A stretch of DNA of 64,000 bases from an uncultured Eggerthellaceae bacterium (GTDB taxonomy: Bacteria > Actinomycetota > Coriobacteriia > Coriobacteriales > Eggerthellaceae), in NCBI GenBank assembly GCA_948616985.1, contig CAPGDO010000002.1:5965-69964 (forward strand), read 5' to 3'. Positions 4,607-63,402 of the stretch are shown one piece after another. Positions within the stretch are counted from its first letter, which is position 1; every line of letters begins with the position of its first letter. A model generated the notes under the pieces. That model was not told where the DNA came from and did not search any database. It saw only the letters and a list, made by a program, of their open reading frames with translations. The position numbers and the translations under genes were made by a program.

Positions 4607-4775
4607 AGGTTGGGATTCTAGGCGAAGGGAGCACATCCGTCTTATCACAGCAGGATTAAACATCTTGAAAACATGAGGGATAAGCTTTCGCAACCGCTGT
4701 TCTCTCTTGTAGTCCGATCTGAGAGGAGGGATACACTCCTCCTCAGGACAGAGAACAGTCAAGGAGGTACCTACG

Positions 4776-5093
4776 ATGACCTATGAGCATCTCTACGAGA
4801 AGATGATGAAGGAACAAGCCAAGCTCATGCCCCGGATCGAACAGCTCCAAGATGAGGGCAAGCTGCCCGATGATCTTGCGAAGGCGCTGGCAGGAGTGCA
4901 GCAATGGAATGAGGAAGCGGATCTCAAGCTAGGGAATGCCGAAGCCCCAGTGCTCGCTCCTGACATAGATCCCGTGAACGCCTTCTCCAATGCCCTTGGA
5001 ACCTATCAAGGCCTCTTCACTGAACAAGAGCAGTCCGCCATCCAGCTCTATCAGGAATATGCCGAAGCCATGTTCGATAGGCTCAAGGCCTAG
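4776..5093 (+). CDS. Hypothetical small acidic protein (105 aa)
   Basis: ATG preceded by AAGGAGG (4763..4769). No recognisable family. Transcribed divergently from uvrC. Confidence 0.5.
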   Translation: MTYEHLYEKMMKEQAKLMPRIEQLQDEGKLPDDLAKALAGVQQWNEEADLKLGNAEAPVLAPDIDPVNAFSNALGTYQGLFTEQEQSAIQLYQEYAEAMFDRLKA

Positions 5094-5360
5094 GATGAAG
5101 AGCATTCGGCTTACCGCTTGAGCCTCTTCTGCCATCGTCCTGACTCGCGCCTCGCCAGCATCCTCTCCGATGTGAGCGAGGCGTTCTATCGCATCGGGTC
5201 AGTGATGTGGCTGGAGACGTTCATCCCATCAGGATTCTCCCTATTCCAGGGGAACTCGGTCCATCGCTGAGGCACCATCGGATGTGGGGATGCTAAGGCA
5301 GTAGCGGTCTTCGTCATCTATAATCAAAGGTTCTATCACTTCGTAGGATACGGAACCATC

Positions 5361-6803
5361 ATGACGAGATTCACTGAACTAGGGCTTCCCAAGCGCGCTT
5401 TGGCTGCTGTGGAGAAGCTGGGATTCACCGCCCCCACTCCCGTGCAAGAGCAAGCCATACCGAAGGTATTGGCAGGCAAGGACATCATCGCTGCGGCAAG
5501 CACGGGGACGGGTAAGACAGCAGCATTCCTCTTGCCTGTCTTGGGCAAGATGCAGAAGCGGGATGCAGGACGCAGGAAGCCGCGAGCGCTGGTCATCACC
5601 CCTACCCGTGAACTGGCAGAGCAGATAGCCTACACCAGTACGCGGATCGCGAAGTGCTGCGGGTTGTACTCCACTGCGGTATTCGGCGGCCGATCCTATT
5701 CTCCTCAGATCAAGGACCTGCGCCGAGGTACGGACATGCTGATCGCCACTCCTGGCAGGCTGATCGATCTGATAGAGCGCGGCGTAGCGGATCTTTCAGC
5801 GGTGGAGGTGCTGATCCTCGATGAGGCGGACCGCATGTTGGACATGGGCTTCCTGCCTGCGATCGAGGACATCGTCAGCAAGGTGCCCGAGCAGCGTCAA
5901 ACGCTCCTGTTCTCCGCCACCATCGATGAATCCATCCAGAAGAACCTCTCTAGCCTTCTGGTGGACCCGGATATCATCCAGATCGCCCAGAAGGGGGAAA
6001 CGGCGAAGATCGTCGAGCAATTCGTCATGCCCGTCTCCAATAGCAACAAGGCCGAGGCTTTGAAGTGCCTGCTGGATGAGAAGGGCCATGACCGGGTCAT
6101 CATCTTCGCCCGCACGCGCAATCGAGCCGAGGATCTGGCTCAAGAGCTCAACCGCTCCGGCTTCCAGAGCGAATGCATCCATTCTGATAAGACCCAGGGT
6201 CAGCGCAAGAAGGCCTTGGCGGCCTTTCGTCGAGGAGATGCAGGCATCATCGTGGCTACCGATGTGCTGGCTCGGGGCATCGATGTCCCTGAGGTGGACT
6301 ACGTGGTGAACTATGACCTGCCGGATATGGCTGAGGATTACATCCATAGGATCGGTCGCACGGGGCGTGCGGGCAATGCGGGCTTCGCCGTCTCCTTCGT
6401 GGCTCAGAAGCAGTTGGATCGGCTTGAGGCCATCGAAGCACTGATCGGGCGCAGCATCCCCATCATGCGGATAACCTCCTTCGATATCGACATGGCTCAG
6501 TTGAGCAAGCCCTCTCGTCGGGATAAGGCGAAGACGCGCGAGGGCCTTTCCAAGAAGAGCATCAAGTCTGCCGCGCGGGCCAAGCGGTACCGGGATAAGA
6601 AGAAGCAGCAGAAGCAAGCCGATTATGACTACACGGGCTATGGCGATCTGCGTCGAGGTAAGAAGAAGCGCAAGGACCTACGGCCTGGGGACAGGGCAGA
6701 GGATGTCTCAGAGTCACGGTCAGGCCGGGGTGGGAACAGGAGACGCAAGGAGAATGCCTCCCGTAAGCCTGCCCATTCCCCCAGAAAGCACAAGAAGCGC
6801 TGA
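5361..6803 (+). CDS. DEAD-box ATP-dependent RNA helicase with a basic C-terminal tail
   Basis: Q-motif region FTAPTPVQ, motif I AASTGTGKT, motif II LDEADRM (DEAD), SAT, and HRIGRTGRAG. The last ~100 aa are a Lys/Arg-rich tail. Confidence 0.92.
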   Translation: MTRFTELGLPKRALAAVEKLGFTAPTPVQEQAIPKVLAGKDIIAAASTGTGKTAAFLLPVLGKMQKRDAGRRKPRALVITPTRELAEQIAYTSTRIAKCCGLYSTAVFGGRSYSPQIKDLRRGTDMLIATPGRLIDLIERGVADLSAVEVLILDEADRMLDMGFLPAIEDIVSKVPEQRQTLLFSATIDESIQKNLSSLLVDPDIIQIAQKGETAKIVEQFVMPVSNSNKAEALKCLLDEKGHDRVIIFARTRNRAEDLAQELNRSGFQSECIHSDKTQGQRKKALAAFRRGDAGIIVATDVLARGIDVPEVDYVVNYDLPDMAEDYIHRIGRTGRAGNAGFAVSFVAQKQLDRLEAIEALIGRSIPIMRITSFDIDMAQLSKPSRRDKAKTREGLSKKSIKSAARAKRYRDKKKQQKQADYDYTGYGDLRRGKKKRKDLRPGDRAEDVSESRSGRGGNRRRKENASRKPAHSPRKHKKR

Positions 6804-18478: not shown

Positions 18479-19459
18479 CTACTCCCACTCAACCGTCCCT
18501 ACGGGTTTGGGTGTCAGGTCGTAGCAGACGCGGCAGATGCCCGGTACCTCATGGGTGATGCGGTCGGTCATGCGCTTCAGAAGCGCCCAATCGAGCTCGG
18601 GCACCTCGGCGGTCATGACGTCCACCGTATTGATGGCACGGATGATGGCAGGCCACTCATAGGCGCGAACGCCATCGCGCACGCCGGTCGCGCGCATATC
18701 AGGCACCACGGCGAAGTACTGCCAAGCTCCCACATTCGCCGCTTCCATCTCTTCGCGCACGATGGCGTCAGCCTCGCGCAACGCTTCCAGCCTGTCCCGG
18801 GTGATGGCCCCCAGGCAGCGCACGCCCAAGCCCGGTCCCGGGAACGGCTGGCGGTCTACCATGCCTGCAGACAGCCCCAGCGCCCGGCCCACTTCGCGCA
18901 CCTCATCCTTATAGAGGAGCTTCACAGGCTCCACCAGGTCGAATTCCAGATCCTCCGGCAGGCCGCCTACGTTATGGTGGGCCTTCACGCCGTCCTTGGA
19001 TTCCAGGATGTCCGGATAGATAGTACCCTGAGCCAGGAAGTCAACCTCATCCCCCACCTTGCGCGCCTCTTCCTCGAACACGCGGATGAACTCAGCGCCG
19101 ATGATCTTGCGCTTCGTCTCTGGTTCATCAACATCTTCAAGGAGCTTCAAGAAGCGATCCGTGGCATCCACATAGATCAGGTTCGCATCCATCTGGTTCT
19201 CGAACATATCTATGACCTGCTCGGATTCGCCCTTGCGCATGAGCCCGTGATTCACATGGACGCAGATCAGATTCTCGCCGATGGCACGGTCGATGAGCGC
19301 CGCCACCACAGAACTGTCAACGCCGCCTGAAAGGGCCAACAGGACCTTCCCCTCCCCTACCTGCTTGCGAATAGCGTCAACCTGCTCTTCGATGAACGCG
19401 TTCGCGAGCTCAGGGGTGTTGATACGAGCCATGGAATCAGGACGGACGTTGGGATCCAT
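18479..19459 (-). CDS. guaA: GMP synthase, ATP-pyrophosphatase plus dimerisation domains only (no glutamine amidotransferase domain)
   Basis: 326 aa. PP-loop LALSGGVDSSV. C-terminus ...KPVGTVEWE typical of GuaA. ATG 19459 has GAGGAGG 5 nt upstream. No GATase-like ORF upstream. Confidence 0.85.
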   Translation of the reverse strand: MDPNVRPDSMARINTPELANAFIEEQVDAIRKQVGEGKVLLALSGGVDSSVVAALIDRAIGENLICVHVNHGLMRKGESEQVIDMFENQMDANLIYVDATDRFLKLLEDVDEPETKRKIIGAEFIRVFEEEARKVGDEVDFLAQGTIYPDILESKDGVKAHHNVGGLPEDLEFDLVEPVKLLYKDEVREVGRALGLSAGMVDRQPFPGPGLGVRCLGAITRDRLEALREADAIVREEMEAANVGAWQYFAVVPDMRATGVRDGVRAYEWPAIIRAINTVDVMTAEVPELDWALLKRMTDRITHEVPGICRVCYDLTPKPVGTVEWE

Positions 19460-23689: not shown

Positions 23690-25828
23690 CTAGAGCATGG
23701 ACTGGATCAAGATGAAGAGCGGGCTGAAGGTCAGAGATACGATGGTCATCAGATTGATGAGGATGTTCATGGAAGGACCGGAGGTATCCTTGAACGGATC
23801 GCCCACGGTGTCGCCCACGACAGCTGCCTTGTGGGCCTCAGACCCCTTGCCACCGAAGTAACCCTGCTCGATGTACTTCTTGGCATTATCCCAAGCGCCA
23901 CCAGCGTTGGACATGAAGATAGCCATCAGCATGCCCGTGGCCACCGCACCCGCCAAGAAGCCGCCCAGCATCGCTGGATCGATGCAGCCGATGACGATGG
24001 GAACCACGATGGAGATGATGCCCGGAGCCATCATCTCGTGCAGAGCCGAGGTGGTGGAGATGCCCACGCACTTGTCATACTCAGGCTGAGCCTTGTATTC
24101 CATGATGCCAGGGATCTCGCGGAACTGGCGACGAACCTCTTCCACCATGGCATGGGCTGCCCGTGAGACAGCACCCATGGTGAGCGCTGCGAACATGAAG
24201 GGCATCATGGCACCCACGAAGATGCCCGCCACGATCAGCGGATCGGTGAGGGACAGCTCGAAGCTGGGGATGTAGTTGTGCATGGTGGCCTGATAGGACA
24301 CGAACAGCGAGATGGCTGACAGACCCGCCGAGGAGATGGCGAAACCCTTGGCGATGGCCGCCGTGGTGTTGCCTACCGCATCCAGGGCGTCCGTGCGGTC
24401 ACGGACCTCTTCGGGAAGCCCTGCCATCTCAGCGATGCCGCCCGCATTGTCAGCTACCGGACCATAGGCATCAACGCCGATGGTGATGGCGGTGTTGGAG
24501 AGCATGCCCGTGGCAGCCAGGCCGACACCGAAGAGGCCAACAGCGATGGCGTTGTCAGTGGAAGCCTCAGGGAAGGCCATGTTGCCGAAGAGGAAGGCAC
24601 CGATGATGGCCAAGGCAACGAGGCAGATGGGGGCGATGGTAGAGAGCATGCCCGTACCCAGACCCTCGATGATGACGGTGGCAGCGCCCGTCTCGGCCGC
24701 CTCTGCGATCTTATGGACCGGCTTGTAGTGATCAGAGCAGAAGTACTCGGTGATCTTGCCGATGGCCAGGCCGGCGATGAGGCCGCAGAGCACGCTGCCG
24801 AAGAGCCACAGCGGCTGGGCTTCTACAGCCATGCCGTTCCAAACGAAGAAGATGCCCAAGATCACGAGGATCTCAAGGCCGGCAGCCACATAGGTTCCCC
24901 TGTTCAGAGCCTTATGCAGGTCAGCCCCTTCCTTGGTGCGAACGGCGAACAGACCGATGATGGAGGTGATGATGCCGCAGGCAGCGATGACTACCGGGAC
25001 GACCATGGCCCAGATGAGATCAGCGCCAACGAAGTAGCCGCCCAAGGCACCGAAGGTGATTGCCAGGATGGTGGGAGCCAGGATGGAACCGGTGTAGCTC
25101 TCGAAGAGGTCAGCACCCATGCCGGCTACGTCACCCACGTTGTCACCAACGTTGTCAGCGATGGTCGCCGGGTTGCGCGGGTCGTCCTCGGGGATGCCTG
25201 CCTCTACCTTGCCCACCAGGTCAGCGCCTACGTCGGCTGCTTTGGTGTAGATGCCGCCGCCCACACGAGCAAAGAGAGCCACAGCCGATGCGCCGGTAGC
25301 GAAGCCCTCTACCATGCCGATGTGCTCATGGGCCAGATGCATGACCTCACCCGTCACATCGATGCCGGAGATGCCGCTGAATACCAGGAGCACCAGCCAC
25401 AGGGAGAGACCCAGGAGGGCGAAGGAGGCTACGCAGAGGCCCATGGTGAGACCGCTGCGGAAGCTCACGGTGAGCGCTTTTGCTACGCTGGTCTCCGCAG
25501 CATAGGCCGTGCGCGTGTTCGCACGCGTTGCCACGTGCATGCCCACGTACCCGGCAGCTGCAGAGAGGACGCCGCCTGTGATGAACGCGAGAGCCGTCAC
25601 CCAGGAGAGCGCTATGGCCATCACGATGGCGACCACCACCATGAAGATCACGAGCAGCTTGTACTCGCTCATGAGGAACGCCTTGGCGCCCTGTTGGATC
25701 TTGATGGAGATGGAGTTCATCTTCTCAGATCCAGGATCCTGCCTGAGGACCCAGCTTCCCAGATACGCCGCGAAGAAGATACCGACTGCGGCGCAGATGG
25801 GAGCTATCCACGCTATTGCCGTTGTCAC
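23690..25828 (-). CDS. hppA: Membrane-bound ion-translocating pyrophosphatase (K+-dependent type by the GNTTAA motif)
   Basis: ORF 23690..25891, whose first codon is [12 protein letters not shown] and [13 protein letters not shown] motifs. Start taken at GTG 25828 ([10 protein letters not shown]...), which gives the canonical N-terminal length and has GGGAAAGG upstream. Confidence 0.9.
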
Positions 25829-25937
25829 TGTCTTACACCTTTCCCTCAAGGACACATATGAGGGAGAATGTACAGGAAAACGACCCGACAAGCGGCCATC
25901 AATCAGCAGATGGTCGGCCCTGACGGGCGCATGACCT

Positions 25938-34668: not shown

Positions 34669-36006
34669 ATGCGCAAGACCATCCCCTATGATCAGAAGTA
34701 CTACGACCCTGAGATAGAGTGCATGCCCCGATCAGAGCTGGAGCAGATGCAGCTGGATCGCCTCAAGGCCATGCTCTCCTATGCCTACGAGAACACGGTC
34801 TACTACAAGCGCTCCTTCGATGAGGCGGGTGTGAGGCCTGAGGATGTGCAGACGCTCTCTGACATCCAGAAGCTGCCGTTCATCGATAAGAAGACCGAGC
34901 GGGATACCCAGCATGTGGGGAGCTTCTTCGGAGAGATGTGCTCTGTGCCTGAAGAGGACGTGGTGTTCATGGCCACCTCTTCGGGATCCACGGGCGTGCC
35001 AACGGTGAGCCCCTTCACCCAAGAGGATTTCGATCTATGGCAAGACACCGAGGCCCGGCTGTTCTGGCAAGCGGGCATGCGCCCCTCCGACCGCTACGTC
35101 CATGGGCTCAACTTCGCCCTCTACGTGGGCGGCCCGGATGTCATCGGTGCCCAGCGCCTGGGAGCTCTGGCCATTTGGGTGGGCGCGGTACCCTCTGACC
35201 GCTTGCTGTTCGTACTGAAGCAATACCAGCCTACCGTCATCTGGACCAGCCCCTCCTACGCTTGGCAGCTGGGTGAGAAAGCGAAGGAGAAGGGCTTCGA
35301 CCCGAAGACGGACTTCTCCATCCACACCATCATCGTTGCCGGTGAGCCAGGCGGCTCCATCCCCTCTACCCGGGCTGCCATCGAGGAGCTCTGGGGTGCG
35401 AAGGTGGTGGACTTCTTCGGTCTGTCAGACATCTACGGCGCCTGCGCCGCGGCCTGCGAAGCCCGAGATGGGCTGCATATCGTGGAGGATCAGATCCTGG
35501 TGGAGACGGTAGACCCCCATACCGGCGAGGTCTTGGAACCAGGAGAGCTGGGAGAGCTGGTCTACACCACCCTCATGAAGAAGGCGCGTCCCATGATCCG
35601 CTTCCGCACCGGAGACATAGGCTACGTATCCAACGAGCCTTGCCAGTGCGGGCGCACCTTGGCGCGCATCCATATCACCGGCCGAAAGGACGAGATGTTC
35701 ATCGTGGGAGCCGTGAACGTGTTCCCCACTGATATCGAATACGTGGTGCGGGCGGAGAAGGGCCTCACGGGCGAATACTCCATCCGCGTCTATACCGAGG
35801 ATTTCACCACCCGCTACGAGGTATCCGTAGAACGCGCCCAAGGCTCCGAGGAACCCTATGATGAGGTGGCACGGCGGGTGGAAGGGGCGCTCAAGACCCA
35901 CACCGGCGTGCGCCCGGCGAAGGTGATCGTCCATGACGCCGGTAAGCTGGGCACTTCCAGCGAACACAAGGCATCTCGATTCATAGATGAGAGGACGGAT
36001 AAGTGA
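34669..36006 (+). CDS. Phenylacetate-CoA ligase-like (PaaK / F390-synthetase family) adenylate-forming enzyme
   Basis: 445 aa. TSSGSTGVPT AMP-binding loop. PaaK-like N-terminus (YDPEIECMPRSELEQMQLDRLK). C-terminal domain with a conserved Lys region. Confidence 0.8.
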   Translation: MRKTIPYDQKYYDPEIECMPRSELEQMQLDRLKAMLSYAYENTVYYKRSFDEAGVRPEDVQTLSDIQKLPFIDKKTERDTQHVGSFFGEMCSVPEEDVVFMATSSGSTGVPTVSPFTQEDFDLWQDTEARLFWQAGMRPSDRYVHGLNFALYVGGPDVIGAQRLGALAIWVGAVPSDRLLFVLKQYQPTVIWTSPSYAWQLGEKAKEKGFDPKTDFSIHTIIVAGEPGGSIPSTRAAIEELWGAKVVDFFGLSDIYGACAAACEARDGLHIVEDQILVETVDPHTGEVLEPGELGELVYTTLMKKARPMIRFRTGDIGYVSNEPCQCGRTLARIHITGRKDEMFIVGAVNVFPTDIEYVVRAEKGLTGEYSIRVYTEDFTTRYEVSVERAQGSEEPYDEVARRVEGALKTHTGVRPAKVIVHDAGKLGTSSEHKASRFIDERTDK

Positions 36007-36659
36007 TGGCGAAGGCATTCTCTGTATCAGGACAGCACTACCTCTTCGACGTGCAGACCTTCGCCCAGGTGGTCTTAGCGACAGGCGGAGACGGGTTCCA
36101 CTACCAGCTCTTCGACCGCACCACTCAAGGGGTGATGGAGGACGTGGTCACCGGCCGTTGTGACCTAGGAGTGCTGGTGAAGACCACCGAGAACGCAGCA
36201 GAACTGGAAGCAGAGCTGGAAGCTCAAGGACTGGAGTTCCACTTCTTGAGCGAAAGCGCGCCCCGTATCGCCCTGCCTGCCAGCCACCCCATGGTGAATG
36301 CCGATGAGCTCACCTTGGAAGCCATGGCGGATTACCCCTATATCTACTTCTATCAGGGTGAAGATGCACCGGTGCATCTTCACGAGGAGGCTCTGGCAGC
36401 CGCACCGCGCTCCAAGACCATCGCTTGCACTGACCGGGCTAGCCTCTCTGAGCTGATCGTGGCATTGAATGGCTATACAGTGACCAGTGGCATCCTCGTG
36501 GGCATCTCGGATGGATCGCTCTTGAAGACGGTGCCGCTCAAGACCGATGTGAAGCTACAGCTAGGCTACATCACCCGCGCTGATGCTCAGCTGGATGCCA
36601 TGGAGGCGCGCTTCGTGGAGAAGCTCTCCCAGAACCTCGAGCGCTACGCTCACCTCTAG
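36006..36659 (+). CDS. LysR-type effector (substrate)-binding domain protein lacking the N-terminal HTH
   Basis: 217-218 aa. GRCDLGVLV, LPASHPMV...LTLEAMADYPYIYF and ELIVALNGYTVTSG resemble the periplasmic-binding-protein-type-2 fold of LysR regulators. ATG 36006 overlaps the ligase TGA (TGATG); GTG 36003 is an alternative start. No in-frame HTH-coding sequence upstream. Confidence 0.6.
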   Translation: MAKAFSVSGQHYLFDVQTFAQVVLATGGDGFHYQLFDRTTQGVMEDVVTGRCDLGVLVKTTENAAELEAELEAQGLEFHFLSESAPRIALPASHPMVNADELTLEAMADYPYIYFYQGEDAPVHLHEEALAAAPRSKTIACTDRASLSELIVALNGYTVTSGILVGISDGSLLKTVPLKTDVKLQLGYITRADAQLDAMEARFVEKLSQNLERYAHL

Positions 36660-41027: not shown

Positions 41028-42350
41028 ATGCTTGCTGAAAGGTTCCTCACTCGCCTGCTGAAGCCCATGATCCACCGTTCACTCTTATCCAGCCCGACGG
41101 ATGAGACCCACCTTCCGGCCCCCCACCCCGGGGAGCGCTATATGCTCTATCTGCATGTGCCCTTCTGTGAGCGCCTCTGCCCCTATTGCAGCTTCAATCG
41201 CTATCCCTTCCGCGAGGATATCGCCCGCCCCTATTTCGAGAACCTCCGGCGTGAGATGCTGATGCTGAAGTCGTTGGGCTACGATTTCGAGAGCCTCTAC
41301 TTCGGCGGGGGCACCCCCACCGTCATGATCGATGAGCTCTGCGAGACCATAGACCTGGCCCGAGAGACCTTCTCGGTAGAGGAAGTGGGGGTGGAGACGA
41401 ACCCTAATCACCTCATCCCCTCCTATCTAGAGAAGATGAGCGGGCGCATCCAACGGCTCTCCGTAGGAGTGCAGAGCTTCGACGATGGTCTGCTCAAGCA
41501 GATGGATCGCTACGAGAAATACGGCAGCGGCCAGGAGATCTTCGAGCGCATCGGCGAGGCGAATGGCTATTTCGATTCGCTCAATGTGGATATGATCTTC
41601 AACTTCCCCTCTCAGACCGAGGATATCCTCTTCGCCGATCTGGAGCGCATTGCTCAGTGCGGAGCTCGTCAGACCACGTTCTCCCCGCTCTACGTATCCA
41701 ATGCCACCATGAAGAAGATGACGTCCACCTTGGGACAGATGGATTACGGACGTGAGTGGGACTTCTATCGTATCCTTGACGGCGTGCTGGCCGGGGGCGA
41801 CGAGCCGCTCTTTGGCCGGGAGACGGTCTGGACCTTCAACCGATTGGATGAGACCGGTCAGGTGGATGACGCCGTGCGCATCAACGAGTACCAGACCTCC
41901 TACAACGAATACCCCGCTATCGGGTCGGGCTCCATCACGCACCTGGATGGTGCGCTCTACGTGAACGAATTCAGCATCCCGAAGTACAACTCCATGATCC
42001 AGAGCGGACGGATGTCGGTCAAGGAGAAGACCGTCATGTCACGACGGGATCTCATGCGCTATCGGTTCCTCTTGGATCTCTATCGCTTGCGGCTCGACAA
42101 AGAGCGCTTCAAGCGAGAGTTCGGCATGAGCGTGGAGCGAGGGCTTCCCGTGGAGATGACGTTCCTTGCGGCGAATGGCGCGTTCTCGGTGAATGATGAC
42201 CGTGAGGTCCTCCTGACCGAGCGAGGCCGCTATCTGGTACTGGTGATGTACCGTCAGTTCCTTTCCGGCATGAACAACCTGCGTGAACAGGCCCGCAAGC
42301 GCCTCACTGGCTACGAGCGCACCCTCCATTTCGGCGACGGCACCCAATAG
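41028..42350 (+). CDS. Radical SAM protein of the HemN/HemW (oxygen-independent coproporphyrinogen oxidase-like) family
   Basis: 440 aa. CERLCPYCSF (CxxxCxxC) after YLHVPF, GGGTP motif, and a HemN_C-like tail. No other heme genes in the window. Confidence 0.75.
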   Translation: MLAERFLTRLLKPMIHRSLLSSPTDETHLPAPHPGERYMLYLHVPFCERLCPYCSFNRYPFREDIARPYFENLRREMLMLKSLGYDFESLYFGGGTPTVMIDELCETIDLARETFSVEEVGVETNPNHLIPSYLEKMSGRIQRLSVGVQSFDDGLLKQMDRYEKYGSGQEIFERIGEANGYFDSLNVDMIFNFPSQTEDILFADLERIAQCGARQTTFSPLYVSNATMKKMTSTLGQMDYGREWDFYRILDGVLAGGDEPLFGRETVWTFNRLDETGQVDDAVRINEYQTSYNEYPAIGSGSITHLDGALYVNEFSIPKYNSMIQSGRMSVKEKTVMSRRDLMRYRFLLDLYRLRLDKERFKREFGMSVERGLPVEMTFLAANGAFSVNDDREVLLTERGRYLVLVMYRQFLSGMNNLREQARKRLTGYERTLHFGDGTQ

Positions 42351-42397
42351 AGGATCCCGGGTGATCATCGTCGCTCCTGACAGGTGATCGCATGGGA

Positions 42398-42417
42398 GGG
42401 TCGAACGCGTTCGACCC
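42398..42417. terminator. Perfect 20-bp palindrome between convergent genes
   Basis: GGGTCGAACGCGTTCGACCC lies between the radical-SAM stop and the kinase stop. It shares a 12-bp core with the palindrome at 17288..17305. Confidence 0.4.
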
Positions 42418-42456
42418 CTACGGAGGAGCTGCTTTATCCCTTCGCATGAGAGGCTC

Positions 42457-43758
42457 TTAAGCCCGGACAGGGAAGGTGAGAGAGAATGTGGTGAGGCCAT
42501 CGGCGCTGTTCACAGAGATCCGTGCACCCATCTGATCCGCCAGCGCCTGTGCGATGGAGAGCCCCAACCCATGACCATCAGCCATAGCCCGTGCTTCGGG
42601 GCTACGATAGAACCGGTCGAAGATATGAGCCTGCACCTCTGGATCCAAGACCTGTCCTGCATTCGTCACCTCCAGGACCGCCTCTTCGCTCCGCTGAGCG
42701 CTGAGACGAACGCTCACCCGACTTCCCGGCTCCACATACTTGCAGGCATTATCCACGAGCACGCTTGCGATGCGGGTCAAGCCCGCTCCATCCAGCCGCG
42801 ATAGCACTCCTTCTTGGATATCCGTCTCCAGGGAGAAGCCCCGCTCCAATGCACGGGACTCGAAGCTGAGGACGACACCTTCGAGGATGCGCGACGCATC
42901 CACCACTTCCGCTGTCTGCAAGATGCCATCACGCCTCCCATCGCTTCGGGCCCGCTCATCCAAGCTTGCCAAGGAAAGGAGATCCTCCGCAAGATCGGCC
43001 ATGCCATCTGCGGCGCCCTGAGTGCTCTTGAGCCAGTGGACCCGCTCTTCCCAGGGGGCCTCCGGCTCCTCCAAGAGGACTTCGGTATTGGCCTTGATGA
43101 TGGAGAGCGGTGTCTTGAGCTCATGGGATGCGTTGGCGATAAAGCTGCGCTGTTGATCCCAGGCGGCACGGACGGGGCGTAAGGCCCAGCGGGAGAAGAG
43201 GATGCTAGCTACCAGGAAGACGAGGAGCGCAGCGGCGCCCACCCCTGCGAAGATGATGATGAGGCTACGCTGTGACTCCGCCACCGTATCGAAGGCGAAG
43301 GCGACATAGGTGCAGCTGTCTACCGTTCGCTTCAGGAAGCTGAGCCCGAGGGCTGGAATAGAGCTGAAGCCCTTAGGAGCTGCCTCGCACGCCATTCTTG
43401 CCTCCTCAAGCCCCTCCGCATCCAGCAAAGCGCTGGAGCGCGAGGCCAAGGTGAGCGAATCATCTTCCAAGCGATAGACCGCAACAGGCTGATCCATCGG
43501 CTCGGCAGGTGGCTTTCCCAGCTCCGGAGGTTCGAACCACCCCAGGCTGTCTTCAGGGACCCCCTTGTCCCTTCCTGCGGACTCCGGAGCGCTCTCCGCT
43601 TCCACGGTCCTATCGATGGCGGATTCCAACGAGCGGTGCAGATGGTCGGATCCTTCATGGCTGATCCAGACCAGGATGCAGGCGAAGACGGCCAAAAGGA
43701 TGATGGCCACTACCGCCATGATCATGGCAATGAATTTCGTTCGGAGCCGTTGCAGCAT
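42457..43758 (-). CDS. Sensor histidine kinase (two TM helices, ~140-aa extracytoplasmic loop, HisKA plus HATPase)
   Basis: ORF 42457..43776. H-box ASHELKTPLS. N/G-box region (DNACKY, GHGLGLSIA). Start taken at ATG 43758 (MLQRLRTKF); TTG 43776 is an alternative. Confidence 0.9.
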   Translation of the reverse strand: MLQRLRTKFIAMIMAVVAIILLAVFACILVWISHEGSDHLHRSLESAIDRTVEAESAPESAGRDKGVPEDSLGWFEPPELGKPPAEPMDQPVAVYRLEDDSLTLASRSSALLDAEGLEEARMACEAAPKGFSSIPALGLSFLKRTVDSCTYVAFAFDTVAESQRSLIIIFAGVGAAALLVFLVASILFSRWALRPVRAAWDQQRSFIANASHELKTPLSIIKANTEVLLEEPEAPWEERVHWLKSTQGAADGMADLAEDLLSLASLDERARSDGRRDGILQTAEVVDASRILEGVVLSFESRALERGFSLETDIQEGVLSRLDGAGLTRIASVLVDNACKYVEPGSRVSVRLSAQRSEEAVLEVTNAGQVLDPEVQAHIFDRFYRSPEARAMADGHGLGLSIAQALADQMGARISVNSADGLTTFSLTFPVRA

Positions 43759-43772
43759 CCTTCCGCCTTCCC

Positions 43773-44441
43773 TCAAGGAACGAGCCGATATCCTACCCCA
43801 CGCTCTGTTTCGATCCGTACCTCGGAATGCAAGAAGCGCAGCTTCTTGCGCAGGAGGGACACATAGGCATCGATGCTGTGATCCTCCACCGCCACCCCTG
43901 GTTCCCAGGCCCCTTCAGCGATCTGCTTCCGGGTGAGCACGCGGCCGGGGTTCTGGAAGAGCAGGCGCGCCATCAGGTATTCCTGGTCAGAGAGCTGAAT
44001 GGTCTCACCTTCACAGCTGAGGCTATAGGTTGCTCCATCCAGGAGCGTGCCCCCGCGATCGATCCGCTCTACGGGCGCTTCGCCTATCCGACGCGTGAGG
44101 GCCCTCAAGCGCGCCAGCAGCTCCTGAGGGGAGAACGGCTTCGTAAGGTACTGGTCAGCTCCCCCGTCCAGGCCCTCTATCTTATCCGGCAGCGCCCCTA
44201 AGGCTGTCAGCATGAGCACGGGTGTGAGCACCTCAGAAGACCGGAGAGACCGCACCACCTCGAAACCACTGAGACCGGGGAGCATGACGTCCAGGACCAT
44301 GGCATCGTAGAGGGAGCTCTTCCCGTAGTGGAGCCCCGTCACCCCATCGAAGACAGCCTCCACCTCGTAGCCCTCCCGCTCAAGGATATGGACGAGGATA
44401 TCAGACAGCTTCCGATCGTCTTCCACTACGAGGATCCGCAC
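43773..44441 (-). CDS. OmpR/PhoB-family response regulator
   Basis: ORF 43773..44621. GTG 44441 (VRILVVEDD) has GAGAGGAG ~6 nt upstream and gives a canonical ~222 aa protein. Receiver domain (VLDVMLPG, KPF) plus winged-helix (GVGYRL). Confidence 0.9.
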   Translation of the reverse strand: MRILVVEDDRKLSDILVHILEREGYEVEAVFDGVTGLHYGKSSLYDAMVLDVMLPGLSGFEVVRSLRSSEVLTPVLMLTALGALPDKIEGLDGGADQYLTKPFSPQELLARLRALTRRIGEAPVERIDRGGTLLDGATYSLSCEGETIQLSDQEYLMARLLFQNPGRVLTRKQIAEGAWEPGVAVEDHSIDAYVSLLRKKLRFLHSEVRIETERGVGYRLVP

Positions 44442-46014
44442 GGTCTTGCTCCTCTCTTTCCGGTGGCAAGCCCGGGGCCTCGCCGTCCTTCGGTGCTTCA
44501 TGCTCACCCATACTGCCGGGGTCTCCGGGCATGCCCAATGCACCCATGCTTTCCGGACCGCCACCTTGACCGCCAGAGGTGCTGGCGGTGATGGAACCCA
44601 TGACGAGCTCCATTGTCTCATGGCCCACCTGGACCGAGAAGGAGCTGCCCTCCGGTATCTGTGGGCTTGAGGCCAGGATGGTGGAGAATCCGTAGGCAGC
44701 CGTCATGCGGACGAGCTCCACCCCTTCGGCATCCGATAGGATGACCTCCTCCCCCGCTGATCCCGCGGCTTCCCCTACGGTAACGGGTTGCCCTGAGGCA
44801 TCCAACCCGCGAACGCTTCCCACCGAACCCGTCATCAAGACCGTGCCGTCGTTGATCTGGGCTCCAAAGTCATAGTCGAGAGCACCGTCCATGCCGGCAT
44901 CGGGCCCGCTGACGAGCACAACTCCTCCATTGATCTGTACATTGCCATTGCTGTCCAATCCATCATTGGCTCCTGCCAGAACGAGCCTGCCGTCGTTGAT
45001 CTGGATCAAGCAATCGCTGCTAGAAGCAGCCATCTGGTCTTTGCCGAAGGGACCTACATCCCCTCCCGCCTCTCCAGCGTCCTCCTGATCCGATGGGGAG
45101 CCATCTTCGGATAGAGCTGCGTTCACGGCATCATCCGAAGCTGTGATGATGTGTTCGCCTCCATCGATGATGACCTGCTCCCCTTCGTAGCCCTCGGTGC
45201 ACGCCTCTACCGTCACGGAGCCTGCCTGCATGTACATATGACCGTCGCTATGGAAGCCGTCATCCCCGGCATTCACCGTGAAGGCACCCCCTGCCACCTT
45301 GATGCAGTCCTTGCCCTGGAAGGCATCCTCCTTGGCTGTGACCACGAGCTGACCGCCGGTGACGATGAGGTCATCCTTGGAGCAGATGCCATGCTGGTAG
45401 CTTCCGCTCACCACCAAGCTCCCTTCGCCATTGATGGTCAGATCATCCCGGCTGAAGAGGACGGCATCGCGGTTGTCATCCTCTCCTTCCAGGATATAAG
45501 CCGCCCCATCGGACAAGGTGTTGTCCGTCCCCGGAACCAGCGTGATGAAGCATTTGTCGGCATTGTTGATGTACAGGGCGGGACCGTTCTCGTTGTGGAT
45601 GGACGCACCGGCCATCACCACTTGAAGCTTGTCCTCATCGGCTGCATCCACCACCATCTGCCCCTGAGAGAGAGACCCCGAAACAACGTACGTCCCGCTC
45701 TGGCCGAGCGTGACCACGCCCCCTTTAGCTACAGCGCCCGCTCCCTCTATCTGGATGCCCTCATCAGAGAGCATCACCTTCGTAGCCGTCGCTTCATCAT
45801 AGGCAGCATCCTTATCCCGATCGCTGAACTCCAGATCCAGGGTAGAGGTATCGAATATCCCCGTATCCTGGTCTATGGACTGCTGAGGCACCTCCCGCTC
45901 TGGGCTCTCCCGCCCCGATACGCTCAACGGCGCACCTGCACAGCCTCCGAGGCTCAGGGCGAATGCGCTGGCTGCCAAACCAGCAGAAAGGCAGGTCAGC
46001 AAAGGCCTTCTCAT
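44401..46014 (-). CDS. Secreted lipoprotein with a Cthe_2159-like carbohydrate-binding beta-helix domain
   Basis: ORF 44401..46071. ATG 46014 has GAGGAG 5 nt upstream. MRRPLLTCLSAGLAASAFALSLGGCAG is a lipoprotein-type signal with a lipobox Cys. GTYVVSGSLSQGQMVVDAADEDKLQVVMAGASIHNENGPALYINNADKCFITL, followed by repeated beta-helix-like turns, resembles PF14262-type proteins (by eye). Confidence 0.7.
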   Translation of the reverse strand: MRRPLLTCLSAGLAASAFALSLGGCAGAPLSVSGRESPEREVPQQSIDQDTGIFDTSTLDLEFSDRDKDAAYDEATATKVMLSDEGIQIEGAGAVAKGGVVTLGQSGTYVVSGSLSQGQMVVDAADEDKLQVVMAGASIHNENGPALYINNADKCFITLVPGTDNTLSDGAAYILEGEDDNRDAVLFSRDDLTINGEGSLVVSGSYQHGICSKDDLIVTGGQLVVTAKEDAFQGKDCIKVAGGAFTVNAGDDGFHSDGHMYMQAGSVTVEACTEGYEGEQVIIDGGEHIITASDDAVNAALSEDGSPSDQEDAGEAGGDVGPFGKDQMAASSSDCLIQINDGRLVLAGANDGLDSNGNVQINGGVVLVSGPDAGMDGALDYDFGAQINDGTVLMTGSVGSVRGLDASGQPVTVGEAAGSAGEEVILSDAEGVELVRMTAAYGFSTILASSPQIPEGSSFSVQVGHETMELVMGSITASTSGGQGGGPESMGALGMPGDPGSMGEHEAPKDGEAPGLPPEREEQDRADPRSGRRSEAV

Positions 46015-46067
46015 AGGGTCTCCTCTTCTCTCTCGGTTGCGTCTTCTGGTAAGGGCCCCAGGAACGC

Positions 46068-46763
46068 TCACAGGGTCCCCAGGGAAGCGGGGGTCATCGA
46101 AAGGGCCACCTTCAGGTTCCCATTCAAACAGCGCAGTTCGTCCATCATCGGCTTCTCTTCGCCCTTCCGCCTCAAACGCAGGCGGTATTGCAGCTGATAG
46201 AGGCTGCCCATGTTGGTGGTGCGGATCTCCATCAGCTCATAGGTAGCGGCATACCGGCTGAGCACTTCATCGAAGAGCCCGTCGAAGGCGAGGTCCTCAG
46301 GGATGGATACCGTGAGCGTCTTCGTGGGTTCCGCCTGCTTTCCGAACGGCGAGAATGCATAGGCTATGTTCGCCAGGCACACGATAGCGGTGAACAGCAC
46401 TGCTAAGGTGAGGAATCCCATCCCGGTCGCAAGACCGATGGCCATGGCGAAGAAGACGCTGCCGATATCCTTAGCGCTCCCCGGAATGGAGCGGAAGCGC
46501 ACGAGATTGAAGACGCCCATGACAGCAATGCCCGCTCCGAGGTTCCCATTCACGAGCGTGATGACCGCTTGCACGATGAGGGGCAGGAGCGCCAAGGTGA
46601 CCACGAAGCTCTTGGAGTGGTCATGGCGGATCATGTAGACCCCCGCTGCGACGAGCCCCAAGACGAGAGAGGACACGCAGCAGAGGAGGAACTCAGCGCT
46701 GGTCACACCGGCTACCAGCGAATCTGCAGTGCCATAGACGGAAGTGAAGGTCCCCTCAAGCAC
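46068..46763 (-). CDS. DUF4956-family multi-pass membrane protein
   Basis: ORF 46068..46868. GTG 46763 has AAGGAGG 6 nt upstream and overlaps the VTC stop by 8 nt. About 5 TM helices, a NLVRFRS motif region, and a ~90-aa soluble C-terminal domain. Confidence 0.7.
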   Translation of the reverse strand: MLEGTFTSVYGTADSLVAGVTSAEFLLCCVSSLVLGLVAAGVYMIRHDHSKSFVVTLALLPLIVQAVITLVNGNLGAGIAVMGVFNLVRFRSIPGSAKDIGSVFFAMAIGLATGMGFLTLAVLFTAIVCLANIAYAFSPFGKQAEPTKTLTVSIPEDLAFDGLFDEVLSRYAATYELMEIRTTNMGSLYQLQYRLRLRRKGEEKPMMDELRCLNGNLKVALSMTPASLGTL

Positions 46764-47463
46764 GATGCGCCTCCTTTCCAGCCGAGGCATGCCGAGCAGC
46801 GACCCGCTCATAGAACGCGCCATACTTCGAGAACGCCACGGGATAGGCCCTCTCGGCTGAGAGGGCATCCACCAGCCAGAAGGGGTGGGCGTTCGCTCCT
46901 TTGACCTCTAAGACGACCTGCCCTGGCTCTAAGGGATAGACCGTCTGACCGCCATCGAAGAGGTCCAGCACTCGAAGCCCTTCGTCAAAGGTGATGCGCA
47001 GCTCTCCTTCACCATCAGAGCCGAACGAGGTCCTCCGGCAGATCACCAGAGCAGAGGGCAAAAGGTCCCCCATGCGCTGACGGGCAGCCTCTATCTCCCG
47101 AGCGATCTGGGAGCCTCCAAGGCCTGACCCGCGAGAGAAGCCGACGGCATTCTGGGGACTCACGGCCAACCGTCGCTTGTAGACGATGCCCTTGTGCTTC
47201 TTCTTCAGCTCCACGAATGCTTCTGAAGCCGTTGCGAGCGAACCGCTCCCATACCACCGGATGCGCAGCTTCTCCTTATAGAGAGGCTTCTCTACCGATC
47301 GGGCGATGACGCTGCGCTCTCGCGTATCCAGATACAAGCTGTTCACCTGAGAGATGCCGAACTCGCTTGGGAGCAGATGTCGGCTGACCGCTTCCCGTAA
47401 GCGACAGAGCGACGGGGCGTCCAGCAGATACTTGAGCTCTTTGCGTTGGAATGTCTCCTTCAT
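46756..47463 (-). CDS. VTC-domain (CYTH/triphosphate-tunnel-like, 'polyphosphate polymerase domain') protein
   Basis: 235 aa. N-terminal strand QRKELKYLL, SLYLDT, KEKLRIRWYG and VELKKKHKGIVYKRRL basic strands are typical of bacterial VTC-domain proteins (by eye). Confidence 0.7.
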   Translation of the reverse strand: MKETFQRKELKYLLDAPSLCRLREAVSRHLLPSEFGISQVNSLYLDTRERSVIARSVEKPLYKEKLRIRWYGSGSLATASEAFVELKKKHKGIVYKRRLAVSPQNAVGFSRGSGLGGSQIAREIEAARQRMGDLLPSALVICRRTSFGSDGEGELRITFDEGLRVLDLFDGGQTVYPLEPGQVVLEVKGANAHPFWLVDALSAERAYPVAFSKYGAFYERVAARHASAGKEAHRA

Positions 47464-47606
47464 GGACCTTGAGAACCTCCTTCATCCTCATTCGATGCGG
47501 TCCATGGTAAAGAGCGCTCCTCAATGGAGCCTGAAAGGCGCTCGGCTGCCGTGACGGATGCCGAGCCTCAGATACCCGATAACCCTCAGGTGTCGCTGAA
47601 ATCCCC

Positions 47607-48089
47607 TCATTCGGTGCTATTGCGCGACATGGCTATCTTGCCCGTGCGGACGATCTCCTTGATGCCGTAAGCCCGGAAGAGGTTCTCAAGGCCTTCGAGC
47701 TTCTTCTCATCCCCCGTAGCCTCTATGGTGAGCGAGCTGCGCCCCACATCCACGATCTTGGCTCGGAAGATGTTCGCTATCTCGATGATCTCATTGCGGC
47801 GCTCAGGTGCTGCGCTCACCTTGAAGAGCACCAGCTCCCGTTCGATGGCACCACCATCGGTCAAGTCGGTTATCTTATGGACGCTGATGAGCTTGTGCAG
47901 CTGCTTGGATATCTGCTCCAGGGCTACATCATCAGCATCCACGACCATCGTCACATGGGACATGGTGGGATCCTCCACGGGTCCTACGGAAAGCGATTCG
48001 ATGTTGAACCCGCGCCGAGACACGAGTCCCGTTACGCGAGACAGCACACCAGGCTGATTCTCTACCAGAATGGAAAGCACGTGCTTCAT
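47607..48089 (-). CDS. ilvN: Acetolactate synthase small (regulatory) subunit
   Basis: 160 aa. ACT domain HVLSILVENQPGVLSRVTGLVSRRGFNIESL. ATGA overlap with ilvB. Confidence 0.93.
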   Translation of the reverse strand: MKHVLSILVENQPGVLSRVTGLVSRRGFNIESLSVGPVEDPTMSHVTMVVDADDVALEQISKQLHKLISVHKITDLTDGGAIERELVLFKVSAAPERRNEIIEIANIFRAKIVDVGRSSLTIEATGDEKKLEGLENLFRAYGIKEIVRTGKIAMSRNSTE

Positions 48090-63316: not shown

Positions 63317-63402
63317 GCGGGCGTGGCGGAATTGGCAGACGCGCCAGATTTAGGTTCTGGTGGGCACAACCCGTGAAGGTTCAAGTCCTTTCGCCCGCAC
63401 CA
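63317..63402 (+). tRNA. tRNA-Leu (anticodon UAG), type II long variable arm, encoded CCA
   Basis: Acceptor GCGGGCG/CGCCCGC. Anticodon stem CCAGA/TCTGG with loop TTTAGGT (anticodon TAG). A 15-nt variable arm. T-arm GAAGG-TTCAAGT-CCTTT. Discriminator A, then CCA. Confidence 0.9.

Follow-up and report, generated by a model that had tools for sequence, protein, structure and literature searches.

Polyphosphate synthesis in bacteria is attributed to the enzymes PPK1 and PPK2. In yeast, polyphosphate depends on Vtc4, whose triphosphate ligands are K200, R264, R266, K281, R361, K458, S457 and Y359, with E426 as the Mn2+ ligand; mutation showed that all of them are required for polyphosphate in vivo, and K458 is the sole ligand that differs in the inactive Vtc2 and Vtc3 (10.1101/2023.01.27.525886). 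The present work concerns an operon of five genes, encoding a VTC-domain protein, a DUF4956 membrane protein, a lipoprotein of the Cthe_2159 family, a response regulator and a sensor histidine kinase. It lies within a 64,000-nucleotide stretch of DNA from an uncultured Eggerthellaceae bacterium (assembly GCA_948616985.1, contig CAPGDO010000002.1, positions 5,965 to 69,964), referred to as the window. The operon is a real, widely conserved and self-regulated envelope module around a Vtc4-type enzyme, and it is a testable candidate for making polyphosphate independently of the usual PPK enzymes. Family searches across the 64-kb window reveal neither ppk1 or ppk2 nor ppx, pst or phoU, and neither the five operon proteins nor the rest of the window contain a PP_kinase or PPK2 domain.

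Whitfield et al. described CotH, 'polyphosphate polymerase', DUF4956 and DUF4832 as accessory genes beside Gram-positive pel loci (10.1101/768473). The NELoc-2 locus of C. perfringens contains the order VTC, membrane protein and CotH (PMC2879425). In the SIR_1591-1594 group of S. intermedius, deletion of the CotH gene and of the gene in the DUF4956 position altered the amount of Pel and halved aggregation, and the authors did not find the CotH trio outside pel loci (PMC12345266). A VTC-domain gene of C. thermocellum was recurrently hit in adaptation experiments. A preliminary description of the window stated that no function was known for the gene combination. This still holds, although the VTC-DUF4956 pair together with CotH had already been described (10.1101/768473) and knocked out (PMC12345266).

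In the window, the five genes follow one another on the minus strand, in the order of transcription:

47463..46756, minus strand: VTC gene, ATG to TGA, 235 amino acids
46763..46068, minus strand: DUF4956 gene, GTG to TGA, 231 amino acids
46014..44401, minus strand: lipoprotein gene (Cthe_2159 family), ATG to TGA, 537 amino acids
44441..43773, minus strand: response regulator gene, GTG to TGA, 222 amino acids
43758..42457, minus strand: sensor histidine kinase gene, ATG to TAA, 433 amino acids

The junctions were verified by reading the minus strand of the window against the list of open reading frames (ORFs), and the layout, overlaps, gaps, ribosome-binding motifs and palindrome given in the preliminary description are all exact. 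The VTC stop and the GTG start of the DUF4956 gene overlap by 8 nucleotides (GTGCTTGA), and the motif AAGGAGG upstream of this GTG ends 6 nucleotides from the start codon. A gap of 53 nucleotides separates the DUF4956 gene from the lipoprotein gene, whose ATG is preceded by GAGGAG. The regulator GTG start lies 41 nucleotides inside the 3′ end of the lipoprotein gene, and 14 nucleotides separate the regulator from the kinase. The called genes of the relative locus L001 (235, 231, 504, 222 and 432 amino acids) agree with the gene starts of the window. Consensus scans of 42200..47700 for promoters and terminators yielded no sigma-70 consensus promoter and no convincing internal terminator.

The assignment of the three structural proteins to the VTC, DUF4956 and Cthe_2159 families, proposed earlier from the letters of the window, was borne out by hidden Markov model searches against Pfam (PF09359, PF16316 and PF14262). 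The VTC protein is a stand-alone protein with an isoelectric point (pI) of 9.7 and without a membrane segment, and its residues 6-217 align with positions 1-230 of the 235-position profile (E 1.8e-32, 113.2 bits vs a cut-off of 23). Its AlphaFold model (pLDDT, the predicted local distance difference test, 91.1; pTM, the predicted template modeling score, 0.86) comprises eight strands and a long C-terminal helix. The top Foldseek matches of this model are structures of the yeast Vtc4 catalytic domain (3g3t, 3g3q and 3g3r; 1.4e-13 to 4e-11, TM ~0.64-0.71), followed by the inactive Vtc3 and Vtc2 (4e-11 to 4e-10), and the generic tunnel triphosphatases and cyclases appear at 6.7e-7 or weaker, in ranks 14-37. 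Searching PDB with the family profile gives Vtc4 at 4.6e-13, Vtc2 at 4.4e-5 and Vtc3 at 0.008. The single sequence finds only a marginal Vtc4 match (E 0.09), and the profile of the C-terminal third of the protein does not align to Vtc4 in the PDB search.

Residue equivalences were taken from the alignment of the family profile with Vtc4 by hhalign (probability 97%):

VTC protein and Vtc4 ligands: K11=K200, R67=R264, R69=R266, K87=K281, R144=R361, E186=E426, S212=S457, K213=K458
VTC protein and Vtc4, further equivalences: R7=R196, K96=K294, R156=R373, K188=K428

All twelve residues are invariant among 23 VTC relatives. Eight of the nine triphosphate and Mn2+ ligands of Vtc4 are identical in the window protein, the exception being Y359, so that the basic tunnel residues expected in the preliminary description are indeed present. 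K213, the counterpart of K458, is part of an invariant FSKYG motif, and this position is occupied by Ile or Leu in Vtc2/3. The structural model and the alignment thus describe a Vtc4-type triphosphate-tunnel enzyme with an apparently intact active site. Vtc4-like phosphoryl-transfer chemistry by this protein is a prediction rated slightly more likely than not.

The DUF4956 protein (PF16316, E 3e-16) belongs to a family in which nearly all relatives are 231 amino acids long. Its top 120 relatives are 67-99% identical, and the top 120 relatives of the VTC protein, at 38-98%, are less uniform than their membrane partner. The sequence between L60 and G116 hardly varies, and this stretch contains N72-G-N74 and R89-F-R91-S-x-P-G-S-A-K98-D99. 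Five helices (22-137) are predicted, followed by a beta-alpha-beta-beta-alpha-beta domain (148-223) that is better defined. Foldseek matches this C-terminal domain to generic ferredoxin-like and ACT-like folds only, and the model has no match to a membrane protein. By the positive-inside rule, two basic loops and the C-terminal domain are predicted to be cytoplasmic.

The third protein is a lipoprotein with a strong match to PF14262 (Cthe_2159; E 5e-65, 219.9 bits vs 25.8), and its residues 98-268 match PDB 4peu/4phb (E 6.1e-27). The signal peptide MRRPLLTCLSAGLAASAFALSLGG/C contains a hydrophobic segment (4-23) and the lipobox LSLGG/C, ending at Cys25, and the C-terminal tail is rich in Gly and Pro. 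With Cthe_2159 of Clostridium thermocellum (4peu/4phb) it has the Pfam family and the beta-helix repeat region in common. It differs from that protein in being lipid-anchored and longer, with the Gly/Pro-rich tail. In the clade of the window, its gene always follows VTC-DUF4956.

The five genes are conserved as a unit. VTC relatives are encoded in at least 583 species genomes in a scan of species-representative genomes, and the neighborhoods of the best 80 of at least 583 loci were surveyed, with genes labeled by profiles built from the window proteins. The nearest relatives are metagenomic Eggerthellaceae (Coriobacteriia). The order VTC, DUF4956, Cthe_2159, regulator, kinase is kept in L001 (78% VTC identity), with the same flanks as in the window. 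An identical order occurs in L004 (58%), flanked by peptidases and permeases, and in L007 (49%) and L009 (47%), whose neighbors are unrelated. In L011 (44%) the regulator and kinase genes are divergent and placed upstream. More distant loci retain the association, e.g., kinase< regulator< VTC> DUF4956> Cthe_2159> in Paenibacillus cellulosilyticus (33%) and regulator> kinase> VTC> DUF4956> in Acetoanaerobium noterae (31%). The recurrence of the genes as a unit, which the preliminary description had proposed to examine, is therefore documented by neighborhood analysis from 78 to 33% VTC identity.

Adjacency was counted in the 51 loci whose sequence extends far enough in both directions. DUF4956 adjoins VTC in 47 of the 51 (and in 73/80 of all labeled loci), and Cthe_2159 is located directly 3′ of DUF4956 in 36. 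The regulator-kinase pair lies no more than 6 kb from VTC in 27/51, being divergent upstream in 21, co-directional upstream in 5 and downstream, as in the window, in 1. The true numbers may be higher, since the crude calling of ORFs missed some genes in GC-rich DNA and produced antisense artefacts there ('771', '743' and '504' amino acid ORFs), so that some loci appear to lack DUF4956 or Cthe_2159; all of these counts are therefore minimum values. No fusion of VTC and DUF4956 occurs among the 240 relatives listed. In a few loci of Clostridia, a CotH protein replaces or accompanies Cthe_2159. A plasmid search for signs of mobility returned no more than 4 records, of which 3 had the size of a chromosome and lacked annotation.

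Several individual loci show further variation of the partners. In Acetoanaerobium noterae (L093, 8495-10051, plus strand), a 518-amino acid membrane protein follows VTC-DUF4956 in the place where Cthe_2159 would stand; it has two HxK(x)4D-like motifs and, judged only by eye, resembles cardiolipin synthase, an anionic-lipid enzyme. A Ruminococcaceae locus (L068, 5558-8008 and 9968-12595, plus strand) presents a CotH-like gene, VTC, DUF4956 and an 875-amino acid secreted repeat protein with a C-terminal membrane anchor, an order suggesting that different large surface proteins can take the role of third partner. In three Coriobacteriia loci (L017, L021 and L024, about 4000-5800, minus strand), DUF4956 is found downstream of the divergent regulator-kinase genes and not after VTC, and it is preceded by its own copy of an operator-like repeat.

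The junction between the first two genes is itself conserved. The 8-nucleotide overlap of VTC and DUF4956 is kept in ~30 loci from two phyla. The codons of a conserved 'KE' at the C-terminus of VTC form AAGGAG, the site at which ribosomes bind to start the overlapping DUF4956 gene (46756-46790). Since these codons are the Shine-Dalgarno sequence of the next gene, the conservation of KE reflects an RNA signal rather than a protein feature. The conserved overlap with its embedded ribosome-binding site points to translational coupling and a fixed VTC:DUF4956 ratio.

The simplest alternative is that the five genes are chance neighbors without a common function, and housekeeping genes as flanks, with nothing more, are all that speaks for it. 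Against it stand a cassette with unrelated flanks in three bacterial classes, the conserved start/stop overlaps and a common operator before both transcription units (described below). The comparative data rule this explanation out, and it retains a practically negligible probability. The five genes very probably form one functional unit, with the regulation proposed here.

The VTC-DUF4956 pair itself extends far beyond pel loci. The operon resembles the pel-associated CotH-VTC-DUF4956 module in its adjacent VTC and DUF4956 genes, in the secreted protein encoded next to them, and in a membrane protein read as MgtC-like with an ACT domain. It differs in its third gene, a Cthe_2159 beta-helix lipoprotein and not a CotH kinase, and in the dedicated sensor-regulator pair with its operator. 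No pel-type or other polysaccharide genes are found in the window or beside the cassette in five annotated relatives. Because the streptococcal trio has CotH as its third gene, the cassette does not contradict the report that this trio was not found outside pel loci (PMC12345266). There seems to be no earlier description of the form with Cthe_2159 and a two-component system, of its occurrence away from pel loci or of its operator.

The regulation of the operon is indicated by two elements located between ilvN and the VTC gene:

47536..47520, minus strand: predicted response-regulator operator TTTCAGgctccATTGAG, a direct repeat with an 11-bp period
47509..47504, minus strand: -10-like hexamer TACCAT, exactly 10 nucleotides downstream of the second half-site, without a -35 element

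The operator consists of the halves TTTCAG (47536..47531) and ATTGAG (47525..47520) around a GCTCC spacer, and the VTC ATG (47463) lies downstream of both elements. In the alignment, TTTCAG-N5-TTTCAG with no more than 2 mismatches is present in 34/45 regions upstream of VTC, where ~0.007 chance matches are expected per 200-nucleotide region. With a position-weight matrix derived from 24 distinct sites, the window operator reaches 23.9 bits and the runner-up site in the 64 kb 13.4. The degenerate pattern TTTCAGN5WTTSAG has 1 match in the window vs 0.02 expected. Across the 1.02 Mb of the 80 loci, the matrix finds 93 sites of at least 17 bits. Of these, 46 are just upstream of VTC, and 28 are just upstream of regulator/kinase genes; these 28 were outside the training set of the matrix. 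The hexamer TAnn[AC]T follows exactly 10 nucleotides downstream in 51/93 sites, vs a background of 0.46%. Three bacterial classes have the operator ahead of VTC and also ahead of the regulator genes, divergent ones among them, and it is seen in Bacilli and Peptostreptococcales too. In Paenibacillus, the same layout stands with TTTAAG half-sites at either side of the divergent spacer, and in Acetoanaerobium it precedes both units. The box is retained even in loci without an adjacent regulator-kinase pair (L016, L023 and L065).

The regulator contains the Response_reg and Trans_reg_C domains of the OmpR/PhoB family, and its best NCBIfam matches are RppA and PhoB (~181 bits, under their cut-offs). 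The kinase contains HisKA and HATPase_c, and two membrane segments (about 8-33 and 166-194) enclose an acidic extracytoplasmic domain of ~126 amino acids. The net charge of this outer domain is -13 in the window, with a median of -12.5 in 36 orthologues. The first 200 residues of the kinase share homology with the sensor regions in 36 other ORFs, kinases adjacent to VTC operons (E 1e-88 to 1e-7), including the Ruminococcus and Robinsoniella loci from Clostridia. The homology of the sensor regions across loci indicates that the regulator-kinase pair is orthologous and travels with the operon. Together with the operator before VTC and regulator genes, it substantiates the earlier suggestion of a two-component system dedicated to this operon.

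A known system close to this design is PhoB/PhoR with the Pho box. The likeness includes the OmpR/PhoB-type regulator, two direct half-sites with an 11-bp period, a site ending 10 nucleotides before the -10 element, replacement of the -35 element by the operator, and autoregulation. The predicted geometry is that of a Pho box, i.e., an activator site in place of the -35 element, with autoregulation. The half-site differs, being TTTCAG vs CTGTCAT in the Pho box, and the window kinase has a sizeable acidic extracytoplasmic domain. The pair also falls far under the PhoB/PhoR equivalog cut-offs in NCBIfam (PhoB 180.7 vs 296.2; PhoR 121.6 vs 334.2), and membership in the PhoBR equivalogs was rejected on these scores.

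These features can be arranged into a mechanism of phosphate-polymer synthesis at the membrane with hand-over to the outside of the cell. It is the most likely mechanism of those weighed, with a probability that comes a little short of even. In the first stage, the kinase would sense an extracellular cue by its ~126-residue acidic domain and phosphorylate the OmpR/PhoB-type regulator, which would then bind the direct repeat TTTCAG-N5-(A/T)TT(C/G)AG at the -35 position, as in a Pho box. One transcript, including the regulator and kinase genes, would be switched on; as the transcript also encodes the regulator and the kinase, the system would be subject to positive feedback. The soluble basic VTC enzyme, produced in a fixed ratio with DUF4956 through the 8-nucleotide start/stop overlap, would most likely extend a phosphate chain with terminal phosphates taken from a nucleoside triphosphate. 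The enzyme probably docks on the cytoplasmic face of DUF4956, at the invariant loop R89-F-R91-S...K98-D99 and the ACT-like domain. A DUF4956 oligomer would either receive the chain or gate its synthesis. Once outside, the chain would meet the acidic lipoprotein, which would hold it or use it via bound Ca2+/Mg2+. The analysis itself shows the operon structure, its conservation as a unit, the dedicated regulator with its operator, the Vtc4-type fold with its catalytic residues, and the features of topology and charge; the product, the contact between VTC and DUF4956, export and the role of the lipoprotein are the parts that we infer. The chemistry is rated more likely than export of the polymer, which is entertained only tentatively and is more readily doubted than believed.

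Several observations count against this mechanism, and they touch the enzyme, its membrane partner and the lipoprotein. With regard to the enzyme, deletion of the VTC homologue SIR_1593 in S. intermedius gave no phenotype (PMC12345266). A literature search for a characterized bacterial VTC enzyme, its activity or a polyphosphate measurement found none. In the hhalign comparison, the last 60 residues of Vtc4 were entered by hand, and they reproduce the published numbering of E426, K428, S457 and K458. Vtc4 Y359 is replaced by a nearly invariant Cys142 in the bacterial proteins, and an invariant Glu9 on strand 1, where Vtc4 has Thr, forms part of a hydrolase-type ExExK motif. Most bacterial tunnel enzymes are hydrolases or cyclases, and the VTC protein could accordingly be a triphosphatase, NTPase, polyphosphatase or CyaB-type cyclase that energizes DUF4956 or signals to it. 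The fold common to triphosphatases and class IV cyclases agrees with such an activity, as do the absence of a conserved Y359 and the presence of the invariant E9, which restores half of the metal-binding ExExK. The protein is nevertheless nearer to Vtc4 than to any hydrolase by at least 6 orders of magnitude in E-value and retains K458, which is specific to active polymerase subunits. A hydrolase or cyclase is for these reasons judged improbable.

The membrane partner raises a separate difficulty for polymer synthesis with export. The DUF4956 model is poor in its membrane part (pLDDT 63), the helices contain few basic residues, and Pfam gives no DUF202 match even at E up to 10. The preliminary description had regarded the operon as a minimal bacterial counterpart of the VTC machine, a view that fails on two of its three parts, as there is no relation to Vtc1/DUF202 and no SPX domain in any of the five proteins (Pfam). 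The similarity to yeast Vtc4 (3g3q, 3g3r, 3g3t, 8i6v and 7ytj) is that of the enzyme: the eight-stranded tunnel, the top structural and profile match, and the triphosphate/Mn2+ ligands common to both, including the lysine that marks the active subunit. In contrast to yeast, the bacterial VTC is a free 235-residue protein without SPX or a fused membrane domain, with Cys in place of Y359 and the extra Glu9. Its membrane partner is DUF4956 rather than Vtc1/DUF202, and a two-component system takes the place of inositol pyrophosphates in its control. Unlike in the fused eukaryotic VTC, the catalytic and membrane domains are encoded in the window by separate overlapping genes. Because its membrane partner and regulation differ, the operon is not a miniature VTC complex.

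The family that DUF4956 does resemble is MgtC/SapB/YhiD, in its length of ~230 residues, its five membrane helices and an ACT-like domain at the C-terminus, on the cytoplasmic side. MgtC is a regulatory membrane protein rather than a channel, and no MgtC is known to act as the partner of a tunnel enzyme. The similarity is far below the Pfam threshold: MgtC (PF02308) is the second-best Pfam family in 25/26 DUF4956 members (11 bits vs 31.4), and hhalign of DUF4956 with a hand-entered Salmonella MgtC sequence yields a probability below 1% (E 0.086). The idea that DUF4956 is a Vtc1 homologue was rejected, given the MgtC-like architecture and the missing DUF202 relation. In S. intermedius, an independent study read SIR_1592, which occupies the DUF4956 position, as combining a membrane domain of MgtC type and an ACT domain inside the cell (PMC12345266).

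This resemblance favors a second explanation, in which the polymer stays inside the cell as cytoplasmic polyphosphate or short oligophosphate. DUF4956 would then be no channel but an MgtC-like membrane anchor or regulator that senses a metabolite through its ACT-like domain, and the lipoprotein and sensor-regulator pair would serve a linked envelope task, e.g., divalent-cation handling. Apart from the MgtC-like architecture, the weak MgtC matches and the published reading of the streptococcal counterpart, the explanation draws on the acidity of the lipoprotein and of the sensor domain, which fits cation binding. What it leaves unexplained is the constant secreted or surface third gene, Cthe_2159 or CotH, and the coupling to a membrane partner that is far more conserved than the enzyme. 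A purely intracellular polymer is on balance considered fairly unlikely, and polymer synthesis with hand-over to the outside remains the preferred mechanism.

The third difficulty for that mechanism lies in the charge of the lipoprotein. The protein has 87 Asp+Glu vs 26 Lys+Arg, a net charge of -63 and a pI of 4.05, and this acidity is common to the lipoprotein and the kinase sensor domain. It is a family trait, with a median net charge of -65 in 120 relatives, 71 of which have a lipobox. A basic polyanion-binding surface was rejected for this protein at a net charge of -63, and the polyanion-binding role assigned to it in the earlier reading of the locus is unlikely by charge. Since the lipoprotein is strongly acidic, we infer that it would bind a polyanion only via Ca2+/Mg2+ bridges. 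Cthe_2159 proteins are reported to bind cellulosic or pectic polymers and Ca2+, and pectate binding to lyase-like beta-helices goes through bridging cations. Participation of the lipoprotein and the sensor domain in cation sensing or handling is equally possible.

The lipoprotein is also the starting point of a further explanation, a surface glycopolymer module in which it binds or cuts a polysaccharide, and VTC with DUF4956 supply phosphoryl groups to the surface or regulate in another way the production of a matrix polymer. Cthe_2159 relatives resemble polysaccharide lyases, as reflected by the 4peu/4phb match (E 6e-27), the related CotH-VTC-DUF4956 trio adjoins pel loci, and the S. intermedius deletions in the DUF4956 and CotH positions change Pel amount and aggregation. 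This is opposed by the absence of Pel phenotype after deletion of the streptococcal VTC gene, by the lack of polysaccharide genes beside the five annotated relatives, and by the 64-kb window itself, which contains no glycosyltransferase, pel or other polysaccharide genes. A glycopolymer role is regarded as distinctly unlikely.

Two hairpin-forming sequences lie at the ends of the operon:

42417..42398, strand not assigned: perfect 20-nucleotide palindrome GGGTCGAACGCGTTCGACCC, in the spacer that separates the kinase gene from a convergent radical-SAM gene of HemN-like type (41028..42350)
47539..47567, minus strand: hairpin GGCUCGGC...GCCGAGC, directly after ilvN and adjoining the operator

The palindrome folds as a hairpin with a 9-bp stem and may be a bidirectional terminator hairpin. 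The earlier proposal that it closes the operon is no more than plausible, as there is no U tract and the 76-nucleotide palindrome region folds no better than shuffled sequence (z -0.44). A hairpin occurs in the convergent spacer between the kinase and radical-SAM genes both in the window and in L001 (14900-14930: ATGATGAGAAG...CTTCTCATCAT), and the two sequences are unrelated. At the other end, the ilvN-VTC spacer (47530..47610) folds with -34.8 kcal/mol (z -3.06), and the hairpin at 47539..47567 is probably the end of the ilvBN transcript. It is not found in L001 (the 78% relative), where the operator directly follows the ilvN stop.

On one side the operon adjoins ilvN and ilvB; beyond its other end lie the HemN-like radical-SAM gene and then serC and serA. 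The remainder of the 64 kb is occupied by housekeeping genes, including uvrC, uvrA, dnaG, infB, nusA, leuA, prfA, thrS, valS, clpXP and tig. Four further features of the window were recorded. A membrane H+-translocating pyrophosphatase gene (23690-25891, minus strand; PF03030, E 6e-261) is located 21 kb away from the operon. A 326-amino acid ORF (18479-19459, minus strand) contains only the ATP-pyrophosphatase and GMP_synt_C domains, without a glutamine amidotransferase domain, and resembles a split GMP synthase subunit. The ORF at 36003-36659 (plus strand) has a LysR substrate-binding domain without the DNA-binding helix-turn-helix, and it overlaps by 4 nucleotides the stop of an AMP-binding, CoA-ligase-like gene (34669-36006). 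The sole Rfam match in the window is one tRNA gene (63317-63399, plus strand).

A working bacterial Vtc4-type polymerase would, if true, be a new enzyme class in bacterial phosphate biology and could help to explain polyphosphate in organisms without PPK. For gut and rumen Coriobacteriia, Clostridia and some Bacilli, this would amount to a third, PPK-free polyphosphate route, with a free Vtc4-type polymerase that is docked on an MgtC-like DUF4956 oligomer and passes its polymer across the membrane, an acidic Ca2+-loaded beta-helix lipoprotein (in other lineages a CotH kinase) outside, and a cation- or envelope-sensing two-component switch that acts through the Pho-box-like operator; as a whole, this proposal is tentative and rather doubtful. 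If such a route is true, the origin of the eukaryotic VTC catalytic domain would be placed in bacteria. The module is directly testable, as it is present in culturable human-gut genera: Gordonibacter, Adlercreutzia, Senegalimassilia, Raoultibacter, Ellagibacter, Blautia and Ruminococcus. The operator and the dedicated sensor provide a practical handle for finding the inducing signal. The ties to MgtC-like proteins, CotH kinases and Pel-dependent aggregation suggest a role of the module at the cell surface, which may bear on colonization.

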